Both the position numbers and the translations under genes were made by a program. This document shows, one piece after another, positions 10,400 through 63,504 of a DNA stretch of 64,000 nt. Each line of letters starts with the position of its first letter. Position 1 is the first letter of the stretch. The notes below the pieces were generated by a model that was given only the letters and a program-made list of their open reading frames with translations, searched no databases and was not told the DNA's origin. Origin of the DNA: Callorhinchus milii (Eukaryota); assembly GCF_018977255.1 (NCBI RefSeq), contig NW_024704743.1, forward strand, positions 4,342,001-4,406,000, read 5' to 3'.

Positions 10400-10952
10400 G
10401 CGTTGCTTGCTTGTCGGCCTCCCCAACTCCCCCCTCCACAGGCTGCAGATCATCCAGAACTCTGCAGCCCGGGTCCGCTCTCGCACCAGGCCCTGTGACC
10501 CCTATCAACCCCATCCTCACCCGACTCCACTGGCTTCCCATCACACAGAGGATACGGTTCAAGATCCCACCATTGGCGGGCCGGCCTTCTGCCACTCTGC
10601 CCCCACCCTCTGGAACTCCACCCCGCAGTCCCTCTGCCTCGTCCCCTCCCGTGCCTCCTTCAAGACCCATCTCAAGATCCTTCTCTTTGACCATGCCTTT
10701 GATCACCCTCCTTTCCCCCCTGCCCTCCATCCTCTCCAATCCCGACCCCCAACTCGGGTCCAAAACATTGACTGTCCTATACAAATGCGCTATACAAATG
10801 GAAGTTTTGTGTATGTGCGTCACCTCATAACCACAACAACAAAATTACAAGTACTATGAATGATTGTTGCGAGTTAATTGCTTTATTCCCACCGCCTTGG
10901 GACGCCCTTCCGACGTGAAAGGCGCTACACAGATATGTTGTTGGTCGTTGTT
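10400..10952 (+). mobile_element. L2 LINE 3' fragments
   Basis: Peptides RLQIIQNSAAR, LHWLPITQRIRFKI and FKTHLK typical of L2 ORF2; (GTT)n tail. Confidence 0.88.
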
Positions 10953-15469: not shown

Positions 15470-16060
15470 TCTCGCCCCCACCAACCCACTCTCTACCCCC
15501 CCCCCCGACCGCTCTCGTCCCCTTCCCCCACCAACCCCTCTCTCTCTCCCCTAAGTCCTCTCCTCCTCCTCTCCCTTACCTCCCCGCCCGCCCCTACACC
15601 TCCACTCTCCCATACCCCCCTTCACCCCCACAGTCCCCCTTCACCCCCACCCCCCCCCCACAGTCCCTCTCCCAGCCCCCCCCCTCTCTCTCCCCCACAC
15701 CCCTCTCCCACCCCCCTCTCCCCCCCACAACCCCCCCCTCTCCCCCCACAGCCCTCTCCCCCCCACACACCCCCTCTCTCCCCCACACACCCCTCTCCCC
15801 CACACCCTCTCTCCCCCCACACACCCCCCCACCCTCTCCCCCCACACCCCTCCCCCACAGCCCTTCCCCCACACCCCTCTCCCCCCACACACCCCTCTCC
15901 CACAGCCCTCTCCCCCCCACACCCCCCCTCTCCCCCACACCCCTCTCCCCCACAGCCCTCTTCTCCCCCCCACACACCCCCTCTCTTCCCCCACACCCCC
16001 TCCCCCACAGCCCTCCCCCCACAGCCCTCTCCCCCCCCACACACCCCCCTCTCCCCCCCA
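15470..16060. repeat. C-rich degenerate minisatellite (units like CCCCTCTCCCCCCACACA / CCCACAGCCCT) at the start of GTPBP4 intron 1
   Basis: Direct reading; G-rich on the transcribed (minus) strand. Confidence 0.9.
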
Positions 16061-16070
16061 GCGCCGGTAC

Positions 16071-16121
16071 CTTGGCGGTCGGCACTACGGTGATCTTCTT
16101 GAAGTTGTACAGCGCCGCCAT
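16071..16121 (-). CDS. GTPBP4: GTPBP4/NOG1 coding exon 1 (MAALYNFKKITVVPTAK)
   Basis: Matches the NOG1 N-terminus (human MAHYNFKKITVVPSAK). ATG in GCCATGG context; GT donor at 16070-16069; 51 nt. Confidence 0.96.
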
Positions 16122-16320
16122 GGCCACGCGCTCCCGGGCAGCAGCGGAGAGAGGAGCCGCACCACGTGGGACGCGCCAACGAGGCGACCGGAAAGGGCAA
16201 GAGGAGACGCCCGCGCGGACCTCCAGACCTCAGCGCCCTCTGCCGGTCAGCCTCCCACCCACAGGCTGGCACCCGGCGCCGGGTTGGGCGACTTCACGCC
16301 CAATTGGGCGGTTTTTAATA
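16122..16320 (-). promoter_or_regulatory. GTPBP4 5'UTR/CpG-rich promoter with E-box CACGTG (16163-16168) and CCAAT palindrome (16297-16310)
   Basis: CpG-dense sequence directly upstream of the ATG; motifs read directly. A full CRE (TGACGTCA) lies further out at 16727-16734. Confidence 0.7.
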
Positions 16321-16629
16321 ATTCCCCTCCTCCCCAAAAAAAAACTGGCACAAGTGAAACATTTTTTCCTGATTTCGTTTTTATTTTTTTTTAATTTTAA
16401 AATTCATTTGAAAAAACCTTCAAGAAAACCCCCCAAAAACCCTCTGTTCGCTCTCGGTTTCCGAAGCGCTGACCTAAATTGGCCGCTCCGCTCTCCCCGC
16501 GGGAGGCGTATTGGGCTACTTTTGGGCTGATGTTTGGTTTAGGGGGGGATTTTGGGGGTGTGGGGTGGTGGTGGTGGGTGGGGGGGGGGGGGGAGTGGGG
16601 TCTACAATTAACTCCTGGCAACCTTGACC

Positions 16630-16660
<31 letters not shown>

Positions 16661-17224
16661 TGGGGAGGGAAAAGAAGAAATGTTCCCTTGATGGGGTGGG
16701 ATGCGGGTGGGAGTGGGGGTGGGGGGTGACGTCAAATCCCACCACCGCTCCGTGCTCCAAGACAAGACGCTGTTCCACCTGAACGCTTTCGTTGCTGTTT
16801 CCCGCGTCGGAATGGAGCCCACCCTCGGTGGCGGTCTCGGTAATCCAGTTCCTGGGCCAGGAGGGTGTGCGGTATTCCAAGGCACTGCTCGCGACCGCAC
16901 CGCCCGTGCGCTGGGTTTCCATACAAATACAGTCTCAAGCCCACGGCACATCTGGTCTTTCCTCTGCGTCAAACTCCACTGGGTTCAGTGCTTCGAGACC
17001 CTACCCAACTCGAAGGGCTCCGTATGAATGCCAAGATGCTGTTGCTTGGTTTCCATAAGACGTAGGAGCAGGAGTAGGCCATTCGGCCCCTCGAGCCTGC
17101 CCCGCCATTTAGTAAGATTATGGCTTATCTTCTAACCTAATTCCATTTACCCGCCCTATCCCCATATTCCTTAATGCCTGTCATTTGGCCCATCATGTCC
17201 GTGCTGGCTGTGTTGGGGGACTCC

Positions 17225-18960: not shown

Positions 18961-19224
18961 TTTTCTTGAGGACCTATTATTTTTTTTCATCTTCGCCAAA
19001 AAGGCCAAACACATATATTTATTGGTGTGTGTGTGTGTAAAAAAATACATTTAATGGTACGTAAAAAAAAAATATTCTGCTTTCCTCAAGAAAAAACACA
19101 CCCGTGACAGAAAAGAGAACTTTCGCAAATCCTCTTCACTCCCGTTACAATCCGCAAAGAGGGGCTGTGGCAAACCTATAAATGTTTCCAAGCAAAGCTA
19201 TAAATTATTATACAAACAATACAT

Positions 19225-19395
19225 TGATAACCCTCGCGTTTGATACAGCCCCCCTTATCACGCCTTCCAGACGTCTCAAAGAGCTTCACAGAAGACGGTG
19301 CGAAGTGAATCGACTGTGTATTTTGTGGGCGAAACGCGGCAGCCGATTGCGCACGGCTGGAGTCCCGCAAACAGCCGTGGGTTGAAGTGACCAAA
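19225..19395 (-). mobile_element. SINE 3' half, GC-shifted copy
   Basis: Aligns to the family with predominantly A/T>G/C substitutions. Confidence 0.8.
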
Positions 19396-22300
19396 AGACA
19401 TTCCGCAAAAGACGCACGCTCGCAACGGGGGAAAAAACAAACCGCGCGACTGCTTCAAACCCGTGACACATGGTGCCCGTTTCCTTGCTGCGGCCTCTGT
19501 TGTCTCGCGCTCGGTCCTGCCTTCTGCTGCCTTTACCTGCAGCGGCGGAGCAGTTACACTCTGGGTCTGTTCCCAGTTCAGCCATCCTTCGCTTACTGGT
19601 CGGCGAGCCGACATTCCCCGCCCCGCTGCTCCCCACTTTATGAGGAGAGACTCACGCCCACCGCACGATCGCATTTTGCGACGCTCTTCCGTTACGAGGC
19701 CGAGCGTCCCTCTTTACAATCCCTACGTTAGACCCCTCGACTGAGCCGGTGCCCTGTTGTGTGGGGAGGTTGCAGCGAAGCGAGGGCACCTAGCGTTGGG
19801 TCAGACCCCCGTCTGTCCCTTTGCCTCGGCTGAACCGAGCTCCAGTGCCACTCCGTGCTTCTCCAAACCACCTTGGCGCACGCACACCGCAGGAAGCCGG
19901 ACTTGCGTCACGCGCAGCAGGCCAGAGATCACCTCACACTGGATCGCCAAGTTTGTCCCAGTGATGGACAATGTGCACAGTCGCCGCCTCCCTCGTTTCT
20001 CCCTCGCTAGCTGTAAACGCTCGGCCCAGTGTTTTACACCCGTGTTCAGGCCTCGCTTTTCCGTCGATTGACCCTGGAGCTCGAAGTGATCGCAGATGCC
20101 CGTCAGGCTCGCGATCGATCGATTGATCGATCGATGGTCGGTCAGAGCCAAAGGCTGTGACATCATCCGCGTACGGGGAAACCATGGCTGCATTCAGCAG
20201 TGATTTCCCTCCCCTCCAAAAAAACACCCAGAAATCTCCAATCTTCCTCTGGACCCCCTCCCTCTCTCCCCCCTCCTTCTCCCCACCCTCCCTCTCTCCA
20301 TCCTCCCCTGCCTCCCTCTCTTCCCCCTCCCTTTTACATGCTTACACCACATTATAATGCCAGCCTCATTTGCACTTGTTAACATATCTTAGTGAATACT
20401 AAATGGCTCAGTGTTGACTCCTACAGTATTCAGTATTACAGTATTCCAATTAGTTTCTAATTGGGTGCAATGGTGCATGACTAGTGTTAAGTTAGTTGTT
20501 GCTTGTTGGAAATTGCAGCTTTAGGTGCTGAGTGAATTCATTTGTAGTCGAAGACTAAGAAGTATTAACGCCCACAAGGGATAAAATCAGCCTTCAGTTC
20601 TTTAAGTACCGGACATGGAAATGCAAGGATTATTGTGACGTGCTTTACTGGTTTTTACATGTGTTATAGATTGCTGAGACAAAATGATTTCATCCAGAAT
20701 ATCTCCGTAGCTTTCATCCGTGAACAATCCATTTCATACATTTGTCATTTCCTGATCTTTCATAATATTTCTGCACAACCTTTAAATGACAGTGAATCCT
20801 GTGAATTGCTTTTTATTATAAAACACAGGACCGCAGGTGAGCTTCCACTTTACATTACGTAGCAACGGAAAGTATAACTTCTCCAGAACTCTCTTTAATC
20901 AGAGATGGCTTCTTCCCACCCCACACACCCACCCACCCACCTATTCTCTGTAGGAAGAGAAAATAAGAGGCTAAACTGTGAGGTTCCTCAACATTCGTTT
21001 GCTTGAGGAATGAGTGCAGCTTTCCATTGCGATAATTACCAAAGATGAATGTTCCTTGTGTTGTAATTCCCGATAGAAATGACCTTTCTTTTCTTGTTAG
21101 ACAATACACTCTCTCGCTCCTACAAGGGAGAGCTGCACTTGCCCCCTACATTTTATATCCCCCCCCACCACCCCGCGCACCACCACACACAACCATTTTG
21201 CCTACCAACCCCAGATCCTTTGACCTTTGCATCATTGACATCTTGCAGCTGAGAAGCTAAAGCAGGCAATCTGCTTCCAGGCTATTGCCCGTATCCCTCT
21301 TGGCTTCCTGCCAGGAGCTGCTTTAGAAAAGCCAACTGGATACTCCCTATCTGATGTTCCATTCTCCCCGGAGGCAGACATCTGACCTTTACTCAGTGCC
21401 AACCCACGCATTGCAGATCGGATCAGAGACTCGGTGAAGTGGGGAGCGGGAGGGACCAACAAACATGGGTCCATCCCTTTGCTCCTCCAAAGCACAAGCC
21501 CCACTGATCATTTCTTATTGGGGATAGATTCTTGCCATATATTAATCGGAAATGAACGGGTGTCTGAATAAAGCCTGAACTTCCCGTCGATTATGTTGTG
21601 CCAGCCTGCACGCAGCCCGATTATAGGTAAGGGCGTACGATGCGTCTCAGGAAAATCATGCAACGTAATTCAATTGAATATACGATAAACAGTACAGTGC
21701 TTTCAAGAATAACAGGTGGTTCATGCTGCATGATAGATTGTAACCTCCAACATGCGCCGACAAACCATTTTATTGTTCCTGAAGCTTGCAGAACTTCAAA
21801 ATAAACAATTGATAAAATAACAGGTGACACACTTACTGAGGTCTCAGTGTGATCACGGATCACATATTGTTATTCCGTGCATGTGGGCCAAAAATCAACT
21901 CAGAGTTAGGCACTGGAGTCAAGAGCTTCGTATAATAGCCTCTGTGATGCACGAAAGATGGCATTAAGTAGAACGTAAGCACAGAGTCCATAGGTCATCT
22001 TCAGTCACGCAGTCATCATTTCTCCCTGTGTAAACATAGAGCAGAGTCCAGAGAATTGACTAATGCAAAAGAAAACACATTGTTGGCAGTCGGACTTGTA
22101 TTAAAGAATTTACACAGTGCTTTTCGTGTTGGGAGGATGCCTCAAACTATTTCACCACAGCTACCTGGGAGCCGGAACTTGGAGAGGGTGCAGTGGTAAC
22201 ACATTCATCGGAGGCATAAATAGATCGGAAGCCCTGTAAGGTCGAGAGAAAGACGTCACATTTGTTTTAGAACTTGCAATTCTGCACTATCTTATCAAGT

Positions 22301-31330: not shown

Positions 31331-31783
31331 CTGGGAGGTGAGGGGAGGGAAGTTAGTTGTAGAGACCAAATGTGCAGAAGTAAAGTTTAGATACATTGCT
31401 TTCATATTTCTGTAAGTTTTTTTTCACAAAAATAATAATGGTTTTTAATCAGTCAGATTTAATTTAGATTATATCACCTCCCTCTGTTTTTAAAAAGATC
31501 CGTCTTTTTCAATGTGCCTTCAGTCACCTCTAAATATTTGCACTTCCTGCTGTGTGTTCACCTCTCTCACTGCTAAGCGCTTTTATGTAAATAGCACTAC
31601 ATAAATGCCAGTTCTTTTCATTAGAAGTACCAGTTTTAGATTAGCTATGGGTGCGTAATCATCCACTAATCTGCTTTTTTTTTGTAATTTGGGTAAAAGA
31701 TAAGTCCGTTCCATAAACTAAGACTATCTGGGAATATGTGAGCAGGGCATGTCCCTCCAGGGAGAGAGGACACACTCTAATCC

Positions 31784-33200
31784 AACAACAACAACAACGA
31801 AATTACATTTACAATTACAAAGCGCCTTTCACATCGGGAGGACGTCCCAAGGCGCTGGACAGACAAAGTTACGGAACCGAGCTGGGGGTCGGAGTGAGGG
31901 AGGGTGGAGGGCGGGGGGGGGGGGGGGGGAGGCAGGGAGATCGACAGCAAAGTCGAAGAGGAGGGTCTTGAGGTGGGTCCTGAAAGTGGCGAGGGAGGGG
32001 GCGAAATGGAGGGACTGTGGGATGGAGTTCCAGAATGGCGGAAGGCCCGCCCACCAACAGTGGGGGCGAGCAAGGCGGGGGACGTGAAGCAGGCCGGAGC
32101 CCGCTGGGCGGAGGGAGCAAACAGGGTGGTGGGGGAGTTAGGAGGACGGAGAGGTAGTGGGGGAGCAAGACCGTGGAGGGCTTTGAAGGTGAGGACCAGG
32201 ATCTTGAACTGTATCCTCTGTGTGATGGGAAGCCAGTGGAGTCGGGCGAGGATGGGGGCGACAGGGTTTTGAATACAGCAAAACGGTAAAACAAGATGAC
32301 ATAGGATTGGAATCGAAAAACAATTTCGGGAGAGAACGCAGTAAACCTTTTCTTAGCCAAAGAATATTCAACACCTGGAACATATTAATAATAACCCTTG
32401 CATTTGATATAGCGCCTCATGGAATATATTGTAAAATGAATTGGCTTTGTATTTTGTGGGCGAAACGAAACAGCCAATTGCTAGGAACTGGACACTTTTT
32501 TTTAAAAAAAAGCTTGATGCTGTGATAGGAAGATGATAGGGCGGGTATTCTGGAAGGATGAGATGAAATGGGTCGAGTGGCCATCTTCATTTGAACCAAT
32601 CTTGTGTGTCGGACACTCGGCCAAAACAAAATCTATCAAGTAACCTGCAGTATCATCTAATATTCTGTCATTTTACGGCAACTCTTTGTGCAATCCTTCT
32701 TGGAGGAAAAATGAAACTCCAAATACCCTTTGCATTCTTTAACTTGTCAATCAGCCACGTGGGGTAAGAAACCCACAACCTGATAAACTGTCGAAGAAGT
32801 AGGTCTCGAGACAGACCTTGAACAATGCAACACAAAATGACATTTACACAGCGCCTTTCACATCGGGAGGACGTCCCAAGGCGCTGGACAGTGGGGGATT
32901 TGTACCCAAGCTGGGGGGGAGGGGTTGGGATCAGGGAAGACGGAAGACAGGGGGGGTGGCTGAAGGTGCAGTTGAAGAGGAGTCTTGAGACGAGCCTTGA
33001 AGGAGGCGAGGGAGGGAGCGAGGCAAAGGGAATGTGGGATGGAGTTCCAAAGGGTGGGCGCAGAGAGGCTGAAGGCCCGGCTGCCAATGGTGGGGTGGGT
33101 AGGGCCGAGGGGGGGACATGAAGCAGGCTGGTTCTCGCTTAGCAAAGGGAGCAGCCGGGTTGGTAATGTTTGAGGGGGTTACAGAGGTAGAGTGGGCACT
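31784..33200 (-). mobile_element. Two L2 3' fragments (31784-32270, 32825-33200) with a SINE piece between
   Basis: (CAA)n tail; GGGAGGACGTCCCAAGGCGCTGGACAG; peptide RAFSLSAPTLWNSIP. Confidence 0.85.
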
Positions 33201-35251: not shown

Positions 35252-36318
35252 AATAATAATAATAATAATCCTTCATTTGATACAGCGCTTTTCACGTCGG
35301 GAGGACGTCCCAAAGCGCTTCACAGAACACACTGTAAAGTGAATTGACTGTATATTTGTGGGCGAACGCGGCAGCCAATTGCGCACAGCAATGTCCCACA
35401 AACAGTCGTAGATGAAAATGACCAATTTATTATTGTTTTTGGTTTGGGAGGGATTATTATTAGGCTCTGTGTGGAGTAAGGAAACTTGCCCAAGGTTTCG
35501 CCCTCTGCCTGGAATTGAACTCAGGCCTCTCGCTCGCAAAGCGAGTGCTCTAACCACTGAGCTACAGGACTCCACTAGTAATAAGAATTTGCGAGGCGAA
35601 AGATGACCGAGAAGATCCAGTTTGTTTTCCACCATTCAGGCAATCGCTTAACGTGTCATTTCCCAAACTATGTACTGGATCCCGAAATATTATTCGTGGA
35701 GTCCTGTAGCTCAATTGGCTGCCGCGTTCGCCCACAAATATACAGTCAATTCACTTTACAGTGTGTTCTGTGAAGCGCTTTGGGACGTCCTCCCAACGTG
35801 AAAACCGTTATATCAAATGCAAGGATTATTATTATTATTATTACTTCTTGACAGAAATCTATCAAATTGGTTCTTGAAACAAACAACATGTTCTGCTTCC
35901 ACCGTCTCCCCGGGGAGCCCGTTCCACAGGTTTATTATTTTCTCACTGAAGTAATGTTACTGCAGATTTGTTCCGCATTTAACCCGCCCTTCAATCGCAG
36001 GCCGTGCCCTCTGGTTCTACGGTTCAGTACAAGACAAAACAGCTTATCGTGGTCGACAGCATCTAGTCCGTTCAGAATTGACCCAAACACCCGCCGACCT
36101 CCTTCCTATTTTACCCTTTTATTCTTATTTTTGATCCTAACGCAGACAGCCCTTACGATAATTGTCTCGCTTGAGGGCAGGCAGTTGACCTGTTTCTCAA
36201 TATATATTAATAATAATAATCCTTGCATTTGATATAGCGCTTTTCACGTCGGGAGAGGACGTCCCAAAGCGCTTCACAGAACACACTGTAAAGTGAATTG
36301 ACTGTATATTTGTGGGCA
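35252..36318. mobile_element. Cluster of three young SINEs: 35252-35574 (-), 35696-35842 (+), 36207-36318 (-)
   Basis: Near-identical 3' halves in alternating orientation. Confidence 0.88.
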
Positions 36319-37070
36319 ATATCAGTATTACGAGCTATTTGTACTTGTTCACGGTCGCCTACACTTGGATCTTGCTGCTGCATACGGTTGCAATAAAAGC
36401 GTCTTGCTCATAACTGGACTGCCGGTTTGCTCGCTTGCCGGGATTGAATGATTGTATCTCGCCTCGCGCGCAGCTGCGAGCGAAATCGCAAAAATACAAA
36501 GCCAAACCGTTCGATTGCGCTTCTTGCGACTGTTGACGCGCGACGCTGCCAGACGCTCGCGAGGGAATTGGATGTCGGCTCGGAAAAAACTTTCCAAGGC
36601 CACGGGGAAAGAGCGGAGGAGCGGGGCCGACTGGATGGCTCTTTCAAAGAGCTGACGTAGGCACGATGGGGCCGAATGGCTTCCTCTTCTGTACTGTAGG
36701 AGTAGTTGAGTCTATGGTACGGTGTTTACCTTGACCCTGCAACACCGCTGATCCTCTGACCAGCGCCACTCCTAATCTCCCGCCAACGCCCCGCTAATCC
36801 CTTTGCCAAGAGCCCTCCAAATCTCTTCTCCCTCGTCCACGTACTTGTCTTATCTCTTAAATAATATGCAATTTAGACGATTAGCCCCCAGCAGTTCCCC
36901 CCCCCCGCCCCACCAACGCACGCACCCAAAGCCTTGGCTCTTGCGATGGGTTTCCGCACATGTCAGATACCCTCCTGATCCCTCCCCGCACCCCCTCCCC
37001 CCCCACCCCCCCCCCCACCCGAAACAATCTTAAATCCAATGATTTTTCTTTTGCTTCAACTTCAGCAAAG

Positions 37071-37074
37071 TGAG

Positions 37075-37112
<38 letters not shown>
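37071..37112. repeat. (GA)n microsatellite
   Basis: Direct reading. Confidence 0.95.
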
Positions 37113-37118
<6 letters not shown>

Positions 37119-37569
37119 GGTGTCGTCTTCAAATCCCTTCGTGCCGTGGGCACCTCCGTGCTTCTCCGACCTGCTTAACCCCCCCCCCCCCACTCCCACC
37201 CCACCCCACCCCACCACCAACCCACAACCCGCTGCCTCCGCTCGACCGGTCCTCCCGCACGTCCTCCCGCGCCCTCCGTTCCACCATCGGTGGCCGCGCT
37301 TTCAGCCACTACGCCTCCGAAACTCCGGAACACTCTCCCTCTTATCCCCCGCCTCGCGCCCCCCCCTCCCACCCCCCCCCACCCCCCTTCTCAACCCATC
37401 GTCCCCACCTTCCTCTTCGACCGCGCCGACGGTCACCTTCCCCCCGGCTCAGGTCGTGCTCTGCCACTGTCAAGCGCTCTGGGAGACTCCGACAACGACG
37501 ACTTGCATTTATATATAGTGCCCCTCACACGGGGTCACGTCCCAGACTACATCAATGCCCGTTGCACAT

Positions 37570-37697
37570 TTCACATACACACGCATACACATACACATAC
37601 ACGTGCAATACACACACACACACACATAATACACACACACACATGCAATACACACACACATACACACGCAATACGCACACACACATACACAAGCAAC
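37570..37697. repeat. Imperfect (CA)n microsatellite abutting a 25-N assembly gap (37698-37722)
   Basis: Direct reading. Confidence 0.95.
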
Positions 37698-37722
37698 NNN
37701 NNNNNNNNNNNNNNNNNNNNNN

Positions 37723-38014
37723 CACCCCTCCCCTCCGTTGTTTGTCGGCGGCCATCACTCGAGCGGCCTGAGGAGGAGGAGGAGGAGGAGGCCCAGGCCA
37801 GACCGGCAGGTGGGTGTTGAGGCCTCGCCGCCTGCGACGCAGGGTAGATGGGGGCGGCCGGGGTTGGTGGGTTGGGTGGGTGGGTGGAGGAGGGATGGGC
37901 GTTGTGGGGGAGGATCGGGCAGTCAGTGTGTACCCGCTCTCCTCCTCCTCCTCCCCCTTCTCCCGAGGCTTTCAACAGCCGCCCCGGCGGCATGGCGGCC
38001 GCCATGTTCCCGGG
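37723..38014 (+). promoter_or_regulatory. LARP4B: LARP4B CpG island with candidate non-coding first exons (donors CAG|GTGGGT after 37809 and GG|GTAACT after 38014)
   Basis: CpG-rich, (GGA)n tract, YY1-like GCCGCCATGTT, two donor-like sites, upstream of the LARP4B start exon. An N gap lies immediately 5'. Confidence 0.6.
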
Positions 38015-51227: not shown

Positions 51228-51325
51228 TTAGTATTGTAGTTCTGAAATGTAACAGCTTGTATTTTGTCCCACAGATCTTGCTGAGCAGAAAAATTCTCTC
51301 TGCAGAGCCAGAAAGCAGACGGCTC

Positions 51326-51406
51326 ATGACTTCTGACCAGGACACTAAAGTTGTGGCTGAACCGCAGGTGCAGCAAGTGCAAGAAGTTGTAGACAGTTCC
51401 CCTCTG
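51326..51406 (+). CDS. LARP4B: LARP4B canonical start exon, coding part (MTSDQDTKVVAEPQVQQVQEVVDSSPL); exon 51275-51406
   Basis: Matches human LARP4B N-terminus MTSDQDAKVVAEPQ; acceptor ttttgtcccacag; phase-0 donor GTAAGA. Confidence 0.93.
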
Positions 51407-52167
51407 GTAAGATGCTGAAAGATTAATTACAGTCCATTTCCTTTGGACCGGCAAATTATTTATGGTTACAGGAAAAACATTCTTTGTTGCAGCGTGGTTT
51501 GTGCCATTTGGGTCCGTTCTAGTTCTCTCCGGGAGGGAGCAAATCGGAGGGAGTCCAGGATGCAGTTCCAGTGAGCGGGGGCAGAAAGGCGAAAAGTTTG
51601 CCACCACTTGTGGTTTGGGTGTGGAAGGCGGTGTGGGGATATAAAACTTGTTGGTCTGATGTTGAGGCTGATATGTCTGACAGGCAATCGTCAGAACAGT
51701 GCAACTGAGGGTTGAGGCAGTGAGATAGTTGGGTGTCATCTATGGAAGTTTGGATGTTGTAACCAGGTGGGAGCACATTGATTGTGAGGAGGAGAGGGCT
51801 GAGGATAGAGCCCCGAGGAATGCCGCATGTGGCAGTGCAGGGGTGGGCGGTGAAGCTGGTTCATGTCTACCCAGAACTTTTTATTTGTTGGGAAGATTGA
51901 GATGGGGGCATGATCCAGGTTTTTAAAATTCTTAATAGGCGTGAAGTAATTTGAAGACTAAGGAAAGAGATCATATTGGACGATTATATTTTGGGCATCT
52001 CATGATGGAAAGGATGGCAACTTAGGATGATATCAGTGCTGACAGGTTATAGTTCTGTGGAGATACTAGAAAAGTTGGGACCTTTTCACTGATTAGAGGA
52101 AACTCGGAAGAGATCTAAAATGATTTCAAAATTATGAATGGTTGTTGTTATGGTAAATAGAATAGTA

Positions 52168-52515
52168 GTAACCCTTGCATTTGATATAGCGGCTTATCAT
52201 GTCTTCGGGACGTCTCAAAGTGCTTCACAGTATATATTGTAAAGTGAATTGACTTGACTATATATTGTATGGGCGAAACACGGCAGCCAATTGTGCAAAC
52301 CAGCGTCCCATTTTATTAGGTTTTTTTTGGAAGGAATTATTATCCCCGGAAAAGCAATCCACCAATCAACTAACATCCGGGTTCCTACTTCCTGCTAGGT
52401 AAACAGAGGCATGTGGAGTAAGGAAACTTGCCCAACATTTTGCCCCACCGGGAATTGAACCCAGATCTCTCGCTTTCAAAGCGAGTGCTCTTATCACTGA
52501 GTTACAGGATTCCAC
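52168..52515 (-). mobile_element. Full-length tRNA-head SINE
   Basis: Tail-to-head match to the family. Confidence 0.88.
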
Positions 52516-53841
52516 AGTCCAGATTGTACAGAATGATGCAACGCGTCTATGCCAGTAGTGAAGTGTTGTAACTTGAGGATCATGACCAGAAGAAAAAAAA
52601 GGTTAGGAATATTTTTTCAGTGGGTTGTTAAATGCCTTACTAAAATGACTGTTAAAACCGAGCCATAACCACAGTTGAAGGAGAATTAGATAAATAAATA
52701 ATATTTATGGGGAAAAGAGCAGAAAATTGGGATTAGAGAAGACGGCATTCAATGTGGGGAATCTTACTTCAGGACATATGTAAACTCTGCTGCTTTTGAC
52801 ACAGTGACGTCATCTGCAGCTGTGGTCTACTTCCACACATATGCAGATCTACTTCTCTAACCGCAACCTTAGACAGGACACCATCAGTGTTCTGTCGACT
52901 TGCCTGTAAGGACTGGATGAATGGCAACCCTCTGCAGCTCCTTCTTGGTTTCAGTCAATGTCTTCTCATCTATGGCTCCACCCTTCTGGCGTATCTCTCA
53001 GATTCACTGAACCTGGGTGCAATGTGGGGTTGAGTCTGCGCTGTCCTAAGACCCCCACATCCGGTCCTTGACTAGGACTGCTTTCTTCCGCCTCTGCCAT
53101 ATCACCCGCCTCCGACCATCCCTCATACCCAACGCAGCTGAAACCTTTATCCAAGCATTTGTTTCCAGTACCCTCCTCGGGTGTCTTGCTAGCTCCACCA
53201 ATCATCCAATCCAGCCTCTGACCTGCGTACACCCCACTCTTCTTCCCACCCCCTTCCATCAGCCTTTTGCACGTTCCCTCATCCCCTCTGCTTCAGCCAC
53301 TCTCTCCCATAATCCTTGTGCCATCGTTTCCTGAACAGAGGTTTCATCATGATGATACAGCTTTAGCTTTCTAGGTAAAATTATAGGGAGTAGTGAATAC
53401 AGTAGACCCTGTTATAATGGGATGCATTATAATGTGTGTTTGATTATAGCATAATTGGGATGGAAACATTCAGAATGCACCCAGGTAGTTGGCTCACTTC
53501 AAATCGTGCTGTCTTGTTTCAAAATGCTGGCTGTTTTCTCGTGCTTTTTTTTCACAAAGGCTAGTTTCCAGTCTTCAGGTTGCTGCCTGATGCAATGTGT
53601 AGGAACTGTTGTCAGTCACAACCCGATGGTCTGGAAGTCTGCCAAATGTTGTGCAGGTTGCTGGCCAGCTTTCTGGTTTGTGTAGTGAATGCAGACGAGC
53701 TGACTGGCAGTCAATCCCTTTATGATGCTGGTTAGGATTTTTCAAACACACAAATACTATTACAACTTCAGCATCTGAGTTAAACCCATCAATATGCACA
53801 AGTTCACAGATTGGGAAGTAGGATAAAGGATACCACGTGTT

Positions 53842-54270
53842 AACCTGGCTCAGTGATAGCAGTCTCGTCCATTAAATCGGAAAGTTGTGAGTTCAAGACC
53901 CATGGACTCGTAGACTAAGATGACACTCCAGTGGAGTCCTGAGGGTGTGTTGCATTGTCAGAGATGACATCCTTTGGATGAGATGTTAAACCGAGGTCCC
54001 GTTTGCCTATTTAGGAGGACATTAAAGATCAAATGGCACTATTTAAAAAGAGATGGGAGTTCCTCCTGTTATTCTGGCCAACAATCCCTCAAAATAAAAT
54101 TGGTCATTCACTTCATGGCTGTTCATGGAATATTGCTGTGTGCAAATTGGTTGACGCATTCCTTGACAAAAACAAAGTCACTTCAGTAACTTCTGTGAAA
54201 AGCTTTGGCATGAAGCTCTTGACATGAATAAGGCACAAAACCAAATGCGAGGATGATGATTATTATTAAC
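53842..54270 (+). mobile_element. Older Deu-domain SINE, near full length
   Basis: TGGCTCAGTG...GTTCAAGAC head; GGATGAGATGTTAAACCGAGGTCCC body; GCTGTGTGCAAATTGG Deu-like segment. Confidence 0.8.
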
Positions 54271-55186
54271 TTATGCTGCTGTTTGGCTGGCGAAGAACAC
54301 CAGTGAGATTGAAATGCATTTTATGCTGTGCCTTTTTTGGCCGAGGTTTTCTGAACACTATTTAGGACAGAAAATCATAATTTGAAAGAGAATTTTTTTT
54401 TCTTGGTCAGCCGGGTGTCTGACACATGTGGAAACCCATCACTATGCTTCAGATTATCCAAACCAAATGGAGAATTCCATGCATCCCATCTACACATGGA
54501 ATTATCAGAGATGGATACCGGAAATAAAAATAAGTTGATTGATCGAAGTACAGTAGTTCTATTGTAGCTCTAACTTGGACACTTGGAATTCTCTCATCTC
54601 CCCATCGCAAAAGTGGTCCAGTCCAATAGTATACATTTGGGAAGTGTCTGGGGCAAAACTTTCATAGTATAAAGTTAATTTAGTGCCAGAAGGAAGAGTC
54701 AGCAGGGTTCAAAATCCCCCCCCCCCCCAATCACTTTGAAGTTGGCCAAATTCAGCAAAAAGTCGGCTGGATCTGACTCAATTACTTGTACTTTTTCACG
54801 ATCGCATTGCTGTTTAAGCGCCTTCAGCCACTGACTGACTGACTGGCAGCTCAGTCCCCAAATCGTGGCATCTCAATCGTCAGCCGACTGCCAGTCAAAG
54901 GCTGGACATTGCCAACAGCCCGTCTGACTGACTGGCAGCCCAGTCTTGTTGGGAGCAGACAGAGGGGTGAAGCCAAGTGATCTCAGCCCCTCCCCAATCC
55001 TTCGACCTTAAATCCTGCCCCTGACCGACCTCTGGAACGAGGTTTGATTGACAGGAGCACATGAATCTCAGCGCAGATTTTCATCAGCACTATTTTTGGT
55101 ACTTGGGTGTTGGCTCGTCTGTAGAGCAGTTAGTTCATTTCATAAGTTCTGAGCTTCAGTGTGTAGTGGCAGTGTCGTGACTCAGC

Positions 55187-58100
55187 ATGGGCTGCTGCTT
55201 CAGTAAAGAGAGGGGCCCTGTGGTGCCTGACCAGGTCGATGAGAAAACAAGCTTGTTGCAGAAGACGAGGAGAGAAACAGCTGAAAGCATTCAAATCGGT
55301 AGTGCCGATGTCATTGAAAAAAGTGACTTGGACGAGCAAGCTAAGGAATTCAGTAAGATGGAAACTCCACGTGCTTTCAAGAGAGGATGTGCTGGTGCTG
55401 ACCAGGGGCAAGGAGAGCTCAAGTCTAACCGGAGGAGAGTCTGGCCTTGGTTAAGTAATGAATGCTCTTACCAGAATGCAGATCATTTTCAGCACCCTGA
55501 GAATCTTGCAGAAGTCAGTGATTACTTCCTTACAAATGACTGTTCCCAATCAAATATGCAGAGGACACTGTGGGATATCTTTGGTTTGCCAAAGAGAAAA
55601 TACTCTATTAAAGCAGAGAATGGCACCTCAAAGAGTAAATGGCGAAAGTTGTGCACTTCTGCTGCTCCGTTGGAGGGGAATCCTGAAATGGTTGAAATTG
55701 CTGAGAACGTAACTGAAGGAATGCCTAATTCAACTGCTGAGAGTGATTCTCCTGGGAATGAGAAACTGCTTCGAACCCCAGAAGAAGTTCCAAGTGGAGA
55801 ATGTATGGAGAGTTGTCAAACGAGTGGTGAGATTTCCCGCGCACAGCAGCAAAATATTTCATGTCATTTAGTGACTGAGTTTCATTTTGCTAAAAATAAA
55901 AAGCCCGAGGAAATTGAAGGGATTAAAACGTGGAGGCAAAACGTGCAAGAGAACACCTTGGATACCAGTCATCTGGCCTCTGAAATAAATATAAAACCCA
56001 GACCAAATGAATTCTACAGTATCTGCACAATAGATGTAGAAGATGTCGAACTAGATGAGGGTGCACCTGCTTTTACTTGTAGCACTGTTCCAGATATGCA
56101 TTGTTCAGCTGTTGCAGTGGAGAGAAAGCACAACCTAACATGGTCTGTCGATCATGGTGTGGACTTTTCAACACGGCCTATAAGCAGAGCAGCTGTATCT
56201 GAGCAAGGGGAGGCAGTTGAGCCTGAAGTAACGGAGCAAATAGAGGCAGGCATAATGACACCGCGCATTGTTTCCGCAGAAATGGACACTGACGGGCAAG
56301 CTTCTTCTGTATTGTCAAACCACAGGTTGAGTGTAGTACGGCTGCTTGCAGAGACAACTGAACGTGATACAGAAACTCTCAATGGCCAACCTAAACATGG
56401 AATGAAAGGCAACTTTGCGGAGCCTTCAGTTGCTGAGAAAACTTGCTTGTCCAAGAGGAACAACTTTATTAGTTCAGGGGACAATGCTTCGAAATACTCC
56501 AATGTTAGCAAGTTGTTAGAATACTCTGGTTGTGAGGGAAGGCAGATAACGACGGGATCTCTTGCACAAAATAACACTATTAAAGATACAGATGTGACTG
56601 CATATTTACCAACAGAAAGTGAACAAGTTATGAAACTTTGCGATGGAGATTGTCATATATATGGAGCGAATGCTAACAGTGGAATGCACTTGCAATGTTC
56701 TGATCCTCCTCCAAGGCCCACAATTCCAGATCCTGCATCAAAATCTGTAATTGGAGTTGAAAAAGTTTTCGAACCGTCACTTATGTTTGCTGATTCGGAA
56801 ACCTCTGACACGGTTTGCAAAGATGCTTGTACACAGAGGCTTGATGAGAAAAATTCAGAATCTAAAACTCTGCTGGATCTGAACTCAACTGAACAACTGC
56901 ACGGCAATGAAGAGATAGCGCCATGCAATCATGCGAATGACGAAAATCTGCCCAATGGTTTAACTGTAATGGGACTGGAAGAATCACCGAAGTTGAATCA
57001 ACCGTTGCATTGTAATTCCCTGGCTGAAGGGATGCCTAATTCATACTTTACAGGAATTTCAAGCTGTTACTTCAGTCAATCTCTTTGTGATGAGCGAGCT
57101 CATAACCATTTAATTTGTATGCCAACTACTTTGCAAAGAGACTGCAGTGATCAAGGAGAGTTTGCCGATCGGCAGATTGAAACGGATGTATTCCAAAAAG
57201 GGGGACAAAATACTGAGTTTGATGCAAGTATAAACGGTTTGTACTCTGAGCCTCCAGAAGATAAACGTTTGGATTTCATGCAGCCAAGCAACCAATTGAA
57301 TGACTATTTGGAATCGATACCCACATTTGCTGTTCGACAGCAGCTTGAATCCAAAGTGAAGATTTTGAAACTCGATCCACATGCTAATGACAGGGTGCTT
57401 TCTTCTGATGATGACAGTGATTCTATCATTGTTGAGCAGCTGCAGAATCAAAACGACAGTTGCCAAGATGGGGAAAATCTTGACGCTATTTGCACACAGA
57501 ATGTTTTGCAAACTGGTATTACATTCGGTGTATCCGATACTGACTGCCATTCCAGCCTGGCTTCCTTAGAATCTGATGCCCCTAACCATTATGAATTGAA
57601 TAATTTGTGGAACTCTGAAAAGTTGTTCACGAACGCAACTAATCACCAAAGAAAAGATGAGCTCGATTACAGTGGCGCAAACATCAATAAGGTGAAACTG
57701 GATCACCAAGATACTTTGGCTTTAGCTGTTGATTCTACTTCTGAAGTAGGCAGTGAAGAGGATTTCACCATTCAGAAATGTTCTGTAATTCCTGACGTAC
57801 TGGAAAGCTATATGGACGTGTGCTCCAATTCAGGTGGAGATTTAGGCAGCCTGAAAGACCTTAAGAAAGAAATGGTCTTGAATGAAATAACTGAACAGAG
57901 TCTTCAAAGCAGTGAATCTGTATCCGAGCAGAACGCACCTGATTGGGAAGAAAAAGTGACACTTGGAGGTTCTGAAACTGTGGAAAATGCACAACTGAAG
58001 AGCAGAATTAACGGAAATATAAACGTGAATCTGTCAGAATACTGCAACAAAGGGACAAGTGAAGGCTTGAACCAAATATTTAGTACAGAGTTGACACAGT

Positions 58101-58840
58101 GCCCAGTTCTATGCAGGATGGAAAATGAAGTTCCACAAGTCCTATGTGACACAAGTGATAGAACCATGGAGGTCTCAGTCAAGAGTAGTAGTCTGTGCAG
58201 CTTCAAAACTGATTCAAAAAAGGGTGTTGAGTGTTTAAAAACGTCTGTATCATTGGAAAAAGGTGAGGCTTTTCCTTTTTCTAGCACTCCAGAAGATGTA
58301 TATGATTCTACTGAATTCTGTACATCCACAGAACTTTCTATAGATGAAAGGCAGATCGACCGCTATGCATCAACCCCTTCATATGAAATACCCCAAGTCT
58401 CAAACTTCACAGATGGTGATGAAAAAGAGAGATGTTTGTCTGAAACATCCACAAATAGTGAGAGATGTGTCATGGGGATGATGGAAGTTATTTTAGGGGA
58501 GTCTGGGGACAAACCTAAATTAGATGGACACGGTTTACAAAGTGAAATAGCCCCATCGTGGGCAGTCAATCAAGTTTTTGATACCGTGGCCAAAGATAGA
58601 TCTATGCATACATTTTCTGAACAGCTGAAGACTGATTCAGTCGACCAGCCAAGCTGTTTGTGGAATACCTGCTTCTCTGAAATTATGAAAGAGGTCAACC
58701 TACAACAAATGGGTGTAACCCAAGAATCGGTATCAAAGAATGTTGACACTTCAGTAGCTCTTATGGGAATATATCCCTACCCACTTTCCCTCTCCGAAAC
58801 CAGTGATGTTTGGGGATGGATTAATGAATATGACCAGACT
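55187..58840 (+). CDS. LARP4B: Giant alternative first coding exon of LARP4B (1218 codons; MGCCFSKE N-terminus; acidic, Ser-rich, probably disordered)
   Basis: ORF 55187..58855 is uninterrupted. Kozak AGCATGG; in-frame TGA at 55178-55180 upstream; donor ACT|GTGAGT at 58841 in phase 0, matching the phase-0 acceptor at 60244. Assignment to LARP4B is inferred from splice phase and position. Confidence 0.78.
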
Positions 58841-59406
58841 GTGAGTATCTCTTAACTCTGGTTTAAATCTGATTTGGGCTTTTTGCCATTTTAAAAAATG
58901 TCAATGCTGGTTTGCCTTTTCTGCTCAGCGCTTTATTTAAGATGTTTTGTGATTTCATTTGTGGATGACCAATCCCAAACTTAATCGCTTCAAATATTAT
59001 TTGAACTAAGTGCACTTTAGAAATAGAAATCAACATGGAATCAGAATTGCATTACTCTTTTAACTGCTAGATTTTTTNGTGTGTGTAAAGTAATTTACTG
59101 CGCAGTTTGACTAACTCCATGATGGAGTACAACATTTTACGTGACTATTACCCTGGTGTATATGAAAACAATGAATCTTTGTTATCTTGGTAGAAATTTA
59201 CACATCAATATTGTCCATTGTGTCAACTGTATTTTCTATTTCTGATGTTGCAGTGACGTGTTTGGGGTGAGGCTTGCTCACCACACATTTCCTGTTGGTA
59301 AATGGGTTTCCTAGACTAGTCTGCACTTTAGTGAGATTGATAGGTGGGAGTACAACAATTGACTATTGTGGTCTCCTGGAAGAAGAAACAATGAGACATG
59401 GAGTTA

Positions 59407-59793
59407 TGATAATAATATTCCTTGCATTTGGTATAGCACCTTATCACGTCGCCGTGACATCTCGAAGTGCTTCACAGAATATGTTGTAAACTGAATTGAC
59501 TGGGTATTTGTGGGCAACAAGGCAGCAGCCACTTCCACACAGCAGTGTCCCACAAACAGTCGTGAATTGAGTGACCAATTCCTTTTCTCTTTGGGGATGG
59601 GGGAGAGATTATAACCCTCGAAAAGCAGTCTGCCAATCGATGAGCAACCGGGTTCCTACTTACTGCTGGGTAAACGGAGGCGTGTGGAGTAAGGGAACTT
59701 GCCTGAGGTTCCCCCCCCCCCCGCTCAGGAATCAAACCAAGGTCCTCTTGCTTGCGAGGCGAGCGTGCTAACCATTACGCTACGGGACTCCAC
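59407..59793 (-). mobile_element. Full-length tRNA-head SINE
   Basis: Tail-to-head match to the family. Confidence 0.87.
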
Positions 59794-60243
59794 TAATCAC
59801 AAGAAAGCTCCTAAACATTTTATTTCTTATATAAGGAGATGGGTGGCAGTTAGAAATTGATAGCTTGCTATCATGGTTGCGAAATGTATTGTATTTGAAG
59901 GTGAATGTTATGAGAAAAATGGTTCAGATGTTCATGTTGCATCGTCAGGCAAGCAAGCAGTTCAAGCACTTTTTCTGAGACTATAGAGCCTATATTAATC
60001 TAGGGTTATCTTTGGAGTTTCCATGTGTCGGTGGGATGCGTGGAATTCTCAGTTTGGTTTGGATACTCTTAAGCACGGTGATGGGTTTCTGTATGCGTCA
60101 AAGACCCGGCTGACCAATTTTTTTTTTAAAAAAAGGTTCATGTAAAAGGTTTTACTTTTTTTGTTGAGAAATGCTGCAGATGCATTGGTCTTTAATAACA
60201 GCAAAAGTTTTAAATGCACATTAACAGTTTTCTGTTTTTGCAG

Positions 60244-60379
60244 GACTCGGCCAAGGTTTCTGATTTGAATCCTAATGCCAAGGTATGGGCAAATCACGTG
60301 CTAAATCTTGATGCTGCTGCTAGCAATGCCTGTGAGACATGGGAAGAACCATTGGCAACTCCTGACACCTGCTCAGAGG
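60244..60379 (+). CDS. LARP4B: LARP4B PAM2w exon (DSAKVSDLNPNAKVWANHVLNLDA...DTCSE)
   Basis: SDLNPNAKVW is the LARP4-family variant PAM2 (human LARP4B SELNPNAEVW); ttttgcag acceptor; phase-1 GTATGT donor. Confidence 0.94.
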
Positions 60380-61651
60380 GTATGTATGTCCTGTGAATTT
60401 AATTAAAAAATAATAATCCTAGCATTTGCTATAGAGGCCTGATCACACCTTCGAGACATCTCAAAGCGCTTCACCGAATATACCCTAATATAGATTGACT
60501 GTATATATTTCTGTGTGGGGGAAAAGCAAAATTGAGCACAGAAGTGTCCCACAAACGGTCGTGGATTGAGTGACCAATTTATTATGTTTTTTTGGAAGGA
60601 AGAAATTATTTTACTTTGTTCTTCCCCTTCCCCTTATTACTAGAGTGATTCAGAGTGGTAATTAGTTACTTGTAACTGTTGTGTATATAATAATCCTTGT
60701 ACTGGGTATAACACCTTTAACAATGGGAGGAAACGAGTGTTACAGGGAATATTGTGAAGTGTGATAACCACTTTGGATGTAATGTATATAATTTATCATA
60801 CATGTAGAATTTATATTGGATGTAAATGTGACAATATGCTATAAATTATAAAGTACACACTTTAGTCTGTCTTCTGATCAATGGTTCATGAGGCAACTAT
60901 TTTGAACCAGCCCTTTTCAAGGCTGTCTTCGATTCCTGGCATTGTGTATTGATTCTAGATAGAACAAACGTCAATTTAAATCAATATGACTGGGTGACTG
61001 TAGATTGCAGATTAAAGATGCGACCTACAGTGAGTTGCTTTTGTGCATCTTGGCACTGTAAAATCCTAATTCTAGTTGACAATAAAATAAAAATGTGGCC
61101 GGTCTGTCCTTGTGCGATCAGCGTAACATCCCACATTCAAAAGTCTGGCTAGAATGTTACACGGCTATGTTTAACGTAGAATTAGAGATCAGTATGAATG
61201 GGTATTGGGGATTAATGGATTATAAATAATGGTTTGTCCTATATAAAAATAGTTGCCGTGTCCTCATTCTCCTGCCCAATTGAAGCTTCAGATATTACCA
61301 GGAAAATATTATGCTGGAGCCTTTCGGAAATTGAGAGCACGAGCTGCCCTTGGTAATGCTTAAGCAGGAGTAAGGAAACTTGTCTAAGGTTTTGCTCCGC
61401 CCAGAAATCGAACCGAGTCATTCGTGAGAGCATGGCTCAACCAAAGATCCTACTCAAATCCGCAAAGCCAAATATTTTCTAGGATTTTTTTATCACTGAA
61501 TGGAATAGGTACTCTGCAATAGATTCTGAGACTGTAACATAATTGGCAACCTGCTGCTACAACACAGTGTAGTTTAGCTGTAGGGAGGATTGGGTACAGA
61601 CAGCGAGCGTCTCCTCCATGGTGCAGTTTGTTAGAGTGTTCTTAATGATGA

Positions 61652-62013
61652 TAATAATCCTTACATTTGATATAGTGCCTTATCATGTCTTCGAAACGTC
61701 TCAAAACGCTTCACATAATAGACTGTAAAGTGAATTGACTATTTTGTGTGGTGAAACACGGCAGCCAATTGCACACAGCAGCGTGCCACAAACAGTCATG
61801 GATTTAGTGACCCAATTTCTTTTTAAGGGATTATTACCCCCAGGAAAGCAATCTGCCTGTTGTTGACTTAACAACCGTGTTCCTACTTATTGCTAATAAA
61901 GAGAGGCGTGTGGAGTAAGGAAACTTGCCCTATCATTCGCCCTGCCTAGGAATCGAACCCAGGTCCTCTCGCTTGCAAGGCGAGTGTTCTAACCACTGAG
62001 CTACAGGACTCCA
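61652..62013 (-). mobile_element. Full-length tRNA-head SINE
   Basis: Tail-to-head match; on the minus strand TGGAGTCCTGTAGCTCAGTGG and GGTTCGATTCC. Confidence 0.88.
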
Positions 62014-62207
62014 TTCTTTGAATGGGGTGGGGGTGGAGGGGGGGGGGCTCAAGTTGCCCCTGTAGTGAGCCAAAGTGTGTACATCTTGGTTTGTGAGCTG
62101 TTGAGCATACACTCCATCGTGGGTGTCTGGAATAATGTAGCGTAAAGCATAAATGAATAGATAATTTATATATTTTTAAATTATAATACACTTCAATGTG
62201 ATTTCAG

Positions 62208-62372
62208 GATTTGAAGCCATTGGTGATGCTGACAAGTCCTTCCAGAGTCCGTCACAGGAGCCCACCTTGATCGTTTCTCCCACTGAGCCTCCAGACCCGA
62301 ACGTTGTGACACTTCAATGTCCTGACTCTAGTTTTTCAGAATACGAGACGATGCATGGAACCAAGCAGACAG
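62208..62372 (+). CDS. LARP4B: LARP4B next exon (GFEAIGDADKSFQ...SEYETMHGTKQT)
   Basis: Phase 1-1, 165 nt; resembles human GSDANGDGDQ...SEYDSLPENSETG. Confidence 0.85.
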
Positions 62373-63504
62373 GTAGATCTTGACCCTGTGGTCTAGATTT
62401 CGCCAAGTACACTCAATACATTTTAATCGGCAAGCTATAAATGCACTGCAAAAAATGTGCAAAGAGCAATAAGTCTGATGCCACATGTTTAGGGAATGAG
62501 GTAAAATTGAAGAAACGTGAGCTTTGCTGCCTAGAAGAAGCTGGGAGGGGAGGAGACATTATTGAAATGAATGAAATATTGAAATTGGTTATTTGGTCTT
62601 TCTCTTCCCCCCATCTTAAAATACTGATCTGTACTGGGCTACAGTTTTCAAGACTTAGGTAGATAGATTTTTTTTTATAAGTGAAGGGCATTGCGGGGTA
62701 AAGGCGAGTATTCGGAGTTGAAGTACAGATCAGCCATGATCCGAGAGAATAACGGAACAGGCTTGAGGGCTACTCCTGTTCCTAAGATACTTCCTGCCCA
62801 AAAGTGCCTCACACAATGACGGTTAATTTAGTTGTATCCTCACTTTCAGAGGGACTTCCTCTTTTGATATCTATCAGATAAATCTTTCAGAACACAAGAC
62901 ATGCATTATATCTACAGTATTGTGCAATTAACAAACAAAATGTCACCATCATAGTAGCCATTATTGCTTTGTGCAGTCTTCAGAGATATTTTGTGGCGGG
63001 AGAGAGGTATTCTGAAAACAATATATTGCAGTCTTTCTCAAAATATTATTAATCTTCAGTTCCACAGTTAGCTGATATTTGATATCAGTTAAATGTTTTG
63101 TAAAGTATTTTGACTCGTACACATCAATTGAAAAATAAGGCTTTGTAACGTGTCCAGTCATTCCAGAATGAATCACTAATTTTAACGTTTAGAAAATTTT
63201 GAGTTTGGTGCTTTTTATTTGCTTTTCTTTCCCCCATTTGTATGTCAGGCAAACTGTGGTCTGATGGGCAGTTTTGCCCCCAAAAAAACACGGCCAAAAA
63301 AGTAAATTCTGTTTAAATAAGGAAGTGGACTTGGTTTGAGTATCATTTTAAATCCAGCATCCAATATAACTATTGTCGTAGGGAGATTATTGTTTGTTGT
63401 TGATGCAAATAAACACAGTCTGCTATTTTTATTAGTTGTTGTATCTTTGAATAATAATATAACAACACAGATGTGAAAAACTAAATCTTGGTAAAAGAGG
63501 GCCT

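Follow-up and report, generated by a model that had tools for sequence, protein, structure and literature searches.

The window, which is the whole 64-kb stretch of Callorhinchus milii DNA that was analyzed, is by its matches the elephant-shark LARP4B locus, because an exon search matched the RefSeq protein "la-related protein 4B isoform X1." With the last 114 coding residues (1105 to 1218) as the query, one of 15 candidates was this C. milii protein. The locus contains a giant alternative exon on the plus strand (55160 to 58840; 3,681 nt, with 27 nt of 5′ untranslated region and 1,218 codons), which is supported by RefSeq and by assembled contigs and is bounded by an acceptor ending in CTTCAG and by the donor GTGAGT (AG/GT). 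The open reading frame opened at 55187 spans 1,222 codons (55187 to 58852). In the long LARP4B isoform, this exon is used instead of the canonical one (51275 to 51406, plus strand; ATG at 51326, protein start MTSDQD...), which is labeled both "first coding exon" and "coding exon 2." Both alternatives end in phase 0. The exons shared by both forms, also on the plus strand, are the PAM2w exon (60244 to 60379, encoding KVSDLNPNAKVW; labeled from the motif and from excerpts of PMC7928011) and a further one at 62208 to 62372, with the La module lying beyond the window. The MTSDQD... N-terminus is described as part of "P2+" in excerpts of PMC7928011. Joined by their coordinates, the exons give residues 1 to 1,318 of the 1,933-aa RefSeq model XP_007899383.2, which agrees exactly with the giant-exon coordinates, and residues 1 to 127 of the 742-aa model. 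The shark RefSeq cluster holds long models of 1,933, 1,929, 1,568, 1,558, and 1,554 aa, all five of which start with MGCCFSKE, together with the canonical 742/738-aa LARP4B forms.

An in-frame TGA (55178 to 55180, plus strand) lies 6 nt before the ATG at 55187, which is the sole ATG in the 5′ part of the giant exon and has A at −3 and G at +4. Therefore, MGCC is N-terminal and never internal, and Gly2 directly follows the initiator in every transcript. Were exon 2 spliced to the giant exon, positions 55160 to 55186 would complete a 33-codon upstream frame whose stop is 6 nt before the MGCC ATG. Some other features of the locus were apparent. CpG-rich stretches at 16001 to 17000, 19001 to 20000, and 36001 to 38000 are candidates for the LARP4B promoter or noncoding exons, and contigs contain 75 to 105 nt of an upstream exon that falls outside the mapped exons. 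A minus-strand exon (16071 to 16121), divergent from LARP4B, reads MAALYNFKKITVVPTAK and then GT; we take it to resemble the start of GTPBP4/NOG1. The introns carry many interspersed repeat copies, presumably LINE-end and SINE-like (for example, at 10350 to 10859, 31777 to 32352, 59410 to 59800, and 61650 to 62010), and these drew most of the aligned contigs.

Contigs of four of the 13 listed sequencing runs (X1 to X4), all four guessed to be RNA and none recorded as RNA, were aligned to the window. Four of the 13 contained almost none of the searched words, which is no proof of absence. In two of the four aligned runs (X1 and X3, from different studies), contigs join the giant exon in frame to the PAM2w exon: one 4,719-nt contig of X1 passes from 55159-58840 through 60244-60378 to 62207-62373 without a gap, and a contig of X3 joins 58840 to 60244. 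Since these are spliced GT-AG joints, they represent processed RNA. The canonical joint 51405-60243 was seen in X2, X3, and X4 and, among the joints listed, not in X1; such run-to-run differences are at most a weak hint of regulated exon inclusion. The contigs of X1 and X3 begin at 55159 and 55157, respectively, on the acceptor CAG, which would fit a merging of upstream paths, and no joint from an upstream exon to 55160 is among those listed in the aligned contigs. Exon pieces in X2 and X4 read past the donor into the intron, to 58879. One X3 contig has a one-base insertion at window position 58275, which is either an allele or an assembly error. Some RefSeq models of other species are built differently. 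For instance, the MGCC anchor of the guinea pig model reaches the core via only about 90 residues by means of splice sites internal to the exon, and in the whale and quail models the canonical start is joined to the 3′ end of the giant exon; the models with internal splices are P0217, P0092, P0200, P0205, and P0040. The anchor, the spacer, and the WGW motif described below may be spliced in separately.

By its domains and its junctions, the long isoform belongs to LARP4B. Pfam finds a La motif at residues 1340 to 1395 of the long protein P0004 (E = 5e-16), beside which lies an RRM-like domain (PF26088, precomputed) modeled as an alpha/beta unit with a pLDDT of about 90, and the La module matches the LARP4 La module structure 6i9b (E = 2e-80). 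PAM2w, KVS(D/E)LNPNAKxW, is present in 20 of 20 taxa, and the phase-0 junction between the giant exon and PAM2w recurs in models from chimaera to placentals. Contigs, RefSeq, and Pfam together thus bear out the first-pass annotation, in which the MGCC peptide begins a spliced LARP4B isoform with PAM2w and the La module retained. LARP4B stabilizes mRNAs. The canonical human protein binds PABP, RACK1/40S, and AU-rich 3′ UTRs (excerpts of PMC4693254, PMC4478348, and PMC13759317). The same annotation had LARP4B binding RNA via its La module, which is an assumption because PMC4478348 assigns no RNA-binding part; in the excerpt, the region of LARP4B that binds RNA is stated as unknown. The core is not equally conserved everywhere. 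Among 24 long forms compared, La module identity was 52 to 74% in several teleost-type forms compared to 83 to 91% in the others, and P0183 to P0185, P0187, and P0190 to P0194, all teleost-type, keep MGCC and ExxxLL with a diverged PAM2w and La module. At several positions P0184 is, by eye, LARP4B-like rather than LARP4A-like. These diverged long forms are possibly a specialized duplicate or a fast-evolving orthologue, and their drifted La module may reflect relaxed RNA binding.

The translation of 55187 to 55258, MGCCFSKERGPVVPDQVDEKTSLL, has G2, C3, C4, S6, K7, and E19-x-x-x-L23-L24, just as first annotated. Its beginning, MGCCFSKE (55187 to 55210, plus strand), is a predicted anchor with N-myristoylation at G2 and S-palmitoylation at C3 and C4. 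The N-myristoylation consensus is Gly2 with S/T at position 6; here Gly directly follows Met, S/T is at position 6, and Cys is at positions 3 and 4, as expected for dual acylation. ATG-GGN-TGY-TGY occurs a single time in the window, with both strands scanned. The first 7 residues of MGCCFSKE are those of a published membrane tag, MGCCFSKT, the tag of mT/mG mice, which is described as myristoylated and palmitoylated, as enough by itself to target membranes, and as directed to the plasma membrane (excerpts of bioRxiv 2020.09.18.303743 and PMC9183799). Because MGCCFSKT is a published acylation tag, it is very likely that the long isoform is anchored to membranes by the predicted acylation, and by analogy this tag is the best evidence for acylation of the N-terminus. 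The second signal, EKTSLL (55241 to 55258, plus strand), is an acidic dileucine of the form [DE]xxxL[LI], placed at E19 to L24 in the shark and at E16 to L21 in most bony vertebrates. AlphaFold predicts no secondary structure for residues 1 to 60, and the dileucine therein lies in a disordered, membrane-near stretch. Composition alone produced [DE]xxxL[LI] within residues 9 to 30 in 2.6% of 20,000 shuffles; across the orthologous sequences, conservation is the stronger test of this motif.

Conservation was assessed by searching with residues 1185 to 1540 (the last 34 residues of the exon plus the core) against proteins of 1,063 to 3,383 aa. This gave 282 matches, of which 120, not selected for their N-termini, were analyzed, with the 1,933-aa model substituted for its older truncated version. 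An MGCC start was found in 98 of the 120, and 94 of these 98 read exactly MGCCFSKE. Of the remaining 22 proteins, 21 hold part of the giant exon with a different start and 1 is of the canonical type. The dileucine is ExxxLL in 94 of the MGCC starters, ExxxLF in 3, which are all three of the frog proteins with an MGCC start among the 120, and missing in 1 (the pigeon model P0063); of the 97 that have the motif, 95 place its E at position 16. Conservation of MGCC and ExxxLL in orthologous exons had been set in advance as the test, and with 98/120 for MGCC and 97/98 for ExxxL[LF] both signals passed it. The taxa among these proteins include chimaera, sturgeon, paddlefish, tarpon, eel, coelacanth, newts, frogs, turtles, and birds, the last over-represented, and, among mammals, monotremes, marsupials, anteater, tenrec, rodents, bats, fox, and donkey. 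Both signals are thus kept, as far as the compared sequences go, across jawed vertebrates from chimaera to placentals. Primates were absent from the 120 matches listed of the 282 and from 10 clusters looked up. A second set consisted of 117 distinct N-terminal 32-mers that were chosen for MGCC and are biased because part was found via a motif profile; among them, positions 5 to 8 were 96 to 99% identical compared to 24 to 46% at positions 10 to 15, S6 was present in 113, and ExxxL followed by a hydrophobic residue was present in 115 (LL in 109, LF in 4, and LI in 2), leaving 2 with none. The dileucine is missing from the Pelobates (spadefoot toad) protein P0195, which, together with the frog-type proteins P0071, P0108, P0110, and P0180 (LF), makes a natural test of the sorting signal.

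These data bear on whether the isoform is an annotation artefact or an untranslated transcript with chance motifs. The protein records of the long isoform that we saw are automated predictions throughout, and a single-sequence search with residues 1 to 45 returned none of 47 candidates at E ≤ 10, the query being too short. The exon-only open reading frame was not found in the protein collection, and two ESM Atlas searches gave no usable match. Against an artefact stand a frame of about 1,000 to 1,200 codons with the same first 8 residues and an ExxxLL at a fixed position in 20 taxa, which span all major jawed-vertebrate groups sampled, as well as the spliced contigs. We consider an artefact extremely unlikely, and the conservation in essence refutes it.

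The first-pass annotation had likened the N-terminus to that of LAMTOR1, and this likeness emerged again from an unbiased library search. A 45-column profile built from 15 N-termini and run against 1.84 billion representative proteins (E ≤ 0.001) gave 65 matches, of which 62 match the LARP4B exon past residue 30 and 2 are short fragments with LARP4B-type starts. The remaining match, P0186 (170 aa; E = 1.2e-4), is LAMTOR1 (Pfam LAMTOR, E = 5e-13) and hence the sole other family. It is identical to the shark N-terminus at 18 of 37 positions, with nothing beyond residue 37. In a profile search of the PDB, all 10 matches were nonsignificant (E = 0.39 to 2.5), among them human LAMTOR1 (residues 1 to 24), which ranked ninth (E = 0.9); seven others, glycoprotein-hormone alpha chains with an internal MGCCFS, are chance matches. 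Membership of the LAMTOR1 family was considered and rejected: no LAMTOR domain (PF15454) was detected on the giant exon or on P0004 or P0119, in both of which Pfam finds La only, and the BLASTP likeness of P0186 to long LARP4B is confined to residues 1 to 35. Convergence, rather than a possible shared origin with LAMTOR1, is the simplest account of the MGCC-dileucine likeness.

Where such an anchor would go is a separate question. Since MGCCFSKT alone directs a protein to the plasma membrane, the destination of the isoform depends on the dileucine, and on this signal lysosomal-type sorting is reasonably probable. Signals of the [DE]xxxL[LI] type are common to AP-1, AP-2, and AP-3. Because AP-1 and AP-2 also read them, the motif fixes no one organelle, and the isoform could instead reside at the plasma membrane or cortex, the trans-Golgi network (TGN), or recycling endosomes, with the dileucine driving AP-2/AP-1 cycling and the protein still serving as an mRNP tether. 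The ExxxLF of frogs and the one anuran protein with no motif would suit such an address, as would the plasma-membrane location of the tag. We nevertheless regard it as unlikely: the dileucine spacing equals that of LAMTOR1 within one or two residues (E16/L20-L21 in LARP4B compared to E17-E18/L21-L23 in LAMTOR1), and LAMTOR1 was the one other family in the profile search.

Behind the anchor lies a spacer of about 1,100 aa that is acidic, disordered, and about 20 to 30% conserved. The long flexible spacer postulated earlier agrees with the AlphaFold2 models (alignments of 29 and 42 rows), which show no folded domain in the exon and a pLDDT mostly below 55, and Pfam finds no domain on it. Across 20 of 20 taxa, the exon-derived part is 843 to 1,218 aa long with a net charge of −37 to −125 (−97 for the shark product), and its Cys content is 2.2 to 4.2% compared to 0.7 to 1.6% in the core, an uncommon feature in a disordered region of the cytosol. 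In the 20-taxon alignment, the top-residue frequency averages 0.19 to 0.29 in most of the 100-column spacer blocks; conserved columns are concentrated at 1 to 8, 19 to 24, 272 to 309, 1056 to 1066, W1159, and 1197 to 1211. Three spacer motifs, overlooked in the first-pass annotation, probably recruit extra partners. First, FYSICxxDxxxL (residues 276 to 289; 56012 to 56053, plus strand) keeps F, Y, S, C, and D unchanged across all 29 aligned rows, and residues 271 to 290 have a pLDDT of 77, the top value of the N-terminal model. Second, Q(V/I)DxYAxTPSYEI (residues 1056 to 1068; 58352 to 58390, plus strand) is conserved, with erosion in some placentals. Third, YPY...WGW (residues 1196 to 1211; 58772 to 58819, plus strand) abuts PAM2w and has W1209 and W1211 in 20 of 20 taxa. 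Adjoining PAM2w, WGW might alter PABP binding. Endosome binding by Upa2 uses a GWW motif (excerpt of PMC9249222), and the likeness to WGW is probably coincidence.

Two further readings turn on the exon product itself. In one, it is a membrane scaffold in its own right that acts through short motifs, with the core incidental, or else it is also translated by itself from RNA that is unspliced or ends in the intron. Conservation of the four motif islands does not depend on the core, the X2 and X4 contigs pass the donor, and some teleost proteins have a diverged La module, all of which would fit; however, pre-mRNA or DNA in the runs accounts for the contigs that read past the donor, and the widely kept phase-0 junction to PAM2w and the WGW island lying against PAM2w speak against this reading, which we find very unlikely. 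In the other, LARP4B-PABP-mRNA complexes would be degraded at lysosomes, or PABP withdrawn from the soluble pool, and target activity lowered, by microautophagy or selective RNA autophagy and possibly with the FYSI island as an ATG8-binding motif. We take this island to fit the LIR pattern F-x-x-I; F-Y-S-I is nearly invariant with acidic flanks, and membrane-bound lysosomal cargo can be taken in. Disposal seems quite unlikely even so, in that the invariant C and D and a downstream SAV are superfluous for a LIR and a spacer of about 1,100 aa and steady length suits reach over engulfment.

The reading that we prefer, at a probability of roughly 55%, is that the long isoform is acylated, undergoes AP-3-type sorting, and holds out its PABP/mRNA/ribosome-binding core on a long acidic tether. 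Its acylation, sorting, and tethering steps are taken from established pathways and laid over the observed sequence, splicing, conservation, and predicted disorder. Depending on exon choice, LARP4B would be either a soluble protein of 742 aa or a peripheral membrane protein of about 1,900 aa. With high likelihood, Met1 would be removed, G2 cotranslationally myristoylated, and C3/C4 palmitoylated. It is fairly probable that an AP adaptor, most likely AP-3, would then read the dileucine, which lies some 15 residues away from the bilayer, and send the protein to late endosomes, lysosomes, or a lysosome-related organelle instead of its default destination, the plasma membrane. The acidic spacer of about 1,100 residues would extend PAM2w, the La module, and the PABP/RACK1-binding core tens of nanometers into the cytosol, and given this location the core would quite likely bind PABP-coated AU-rich mRNPs and ribosomes and stabilize, translate, or carry them on the organelle. 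The wider proposal, that since the origin of jawed vertebrates a splicing-switched, lipid-anchored poly(A)/PABP-binding protein has docked mRNAs and ribosomes on late endosomes and lysosomes, is tentative and falls slightly short of even odds. If it is true, particular tissues could switch on organelle-surface translation or mRNA transport by one exon.

The literature searched, mainly open-access and without supplements, yielded in the portions seen no description of a long acylated LARP4B isoform. Excerpts of a family survey (PMC7928011) and of PMC13648372, PMC4693254, PMC4478348, and PMC13759317 contain no mention of the long isoform, and none of the papers listed with the peptide string MGCCFSK is on LARP4B by title; supplementary tables of myristoylomes, palmitoylomes, and lysosome proteomes lay outside this search and could list it. 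The union of known parts in a conserved, splicing-controlled isoform appears undescribed, and the literature searched contains no N-terminally acylated LARP, whatever its membrane address. Few linkers are known that hold mRNAs or ribosomes on vertebrate endosomes or lysosomes (ANXA11 and FERRY; excerpt of PMC9249222), and long LARP4B is a candidate linker that already carries PABP- and RNA-binding parts. The giant exon could be deleted without touching canonical LARP4B, and model organisms are at hand because the isoform is present in rodents, birds, Xenopus, and teleosts. Knockout phenotypes of LARP4B, which have been studied for the 738-aa form, may involve a second, membrane-bound protein.

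Comparison with known systems places these features in context. Canonical LARP4B (738 aa in human, 742 aa in shark) comes from the same gene, and the long form keeps its PAM2w, La motif, RRM-like domain, and C-terminal part; the short MTSDQD... N-terminus is replaced by about 1,200 acidic disordered residues with a predicted lipid anchor. The mT/mG tag MGCCFSKT is a synthetic sequence, made from the MARCKS N-terminus by the addition of two Cys; it lacks a dileucine and is directed to the plasma membrane. Closer are the anchors of LAMTOR1/p18 and yeast Ego1, which share MGCC, an aromatic residue and S at positions 5 and 6, E8, and a dileucine at nearly equal distance. Residues 1 to 39 of LAMTOR1, with acylation sites and an acidic dileucine (MGCC and E17/E18...L21-L23 in the published sequence), suffice as a lysosome-surface tag (excerpt of PMC7039192), LAMTOR1 Gly2 myristoylation supports lysosomal localization (excerpt of PMC10940682), and lipidated AP-3 cargo of yeast such as Ego1 is at the plasma membrane without AP-3 (excerpt of PMC8859911). 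By this analogy, the long LARP4B N-terminus probably works like the LAMTOR1 anchor, with the difference that it carries an mRNA-binding core and not Ragulator/Rag. Membrane binding by ANXA11 is via its annexin domains. ANXA11 and FERRY link lysosomes or endosomes with RNA granules or mRNAs (excerpt of PMC9249222). Both bind reversibly, FERRY via Rab5; neither is known to be acylated in the way predicted for long LARP4B, and neither is a LARP. In Ustilago, Upa1 and Upa2 likewise join a PAM2-type PABP-binding motif to an endosome-binding part (excerpt of PMC9249222), with Upa1 binding via a FYVE domain and Upa2 needing GWW, whereas LARP4B would use a predicted covalent lipid and, unlike them, would itself be an RNA-binding protein made a linker by exon choice. 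No homology is claimed here. Pfam finds neither a FYVE nor an annexin domain in P0004 and P0119, only La, and long LARP4B is at most a functional analogue of the Upa1/ANXA11-type linkers. If the proposal is true, long LARP4B would have the role of Upa1 and ANXA11 but with a covalent anchor, held on the Ragulator/mTORC1 membrane by the same type of signal.
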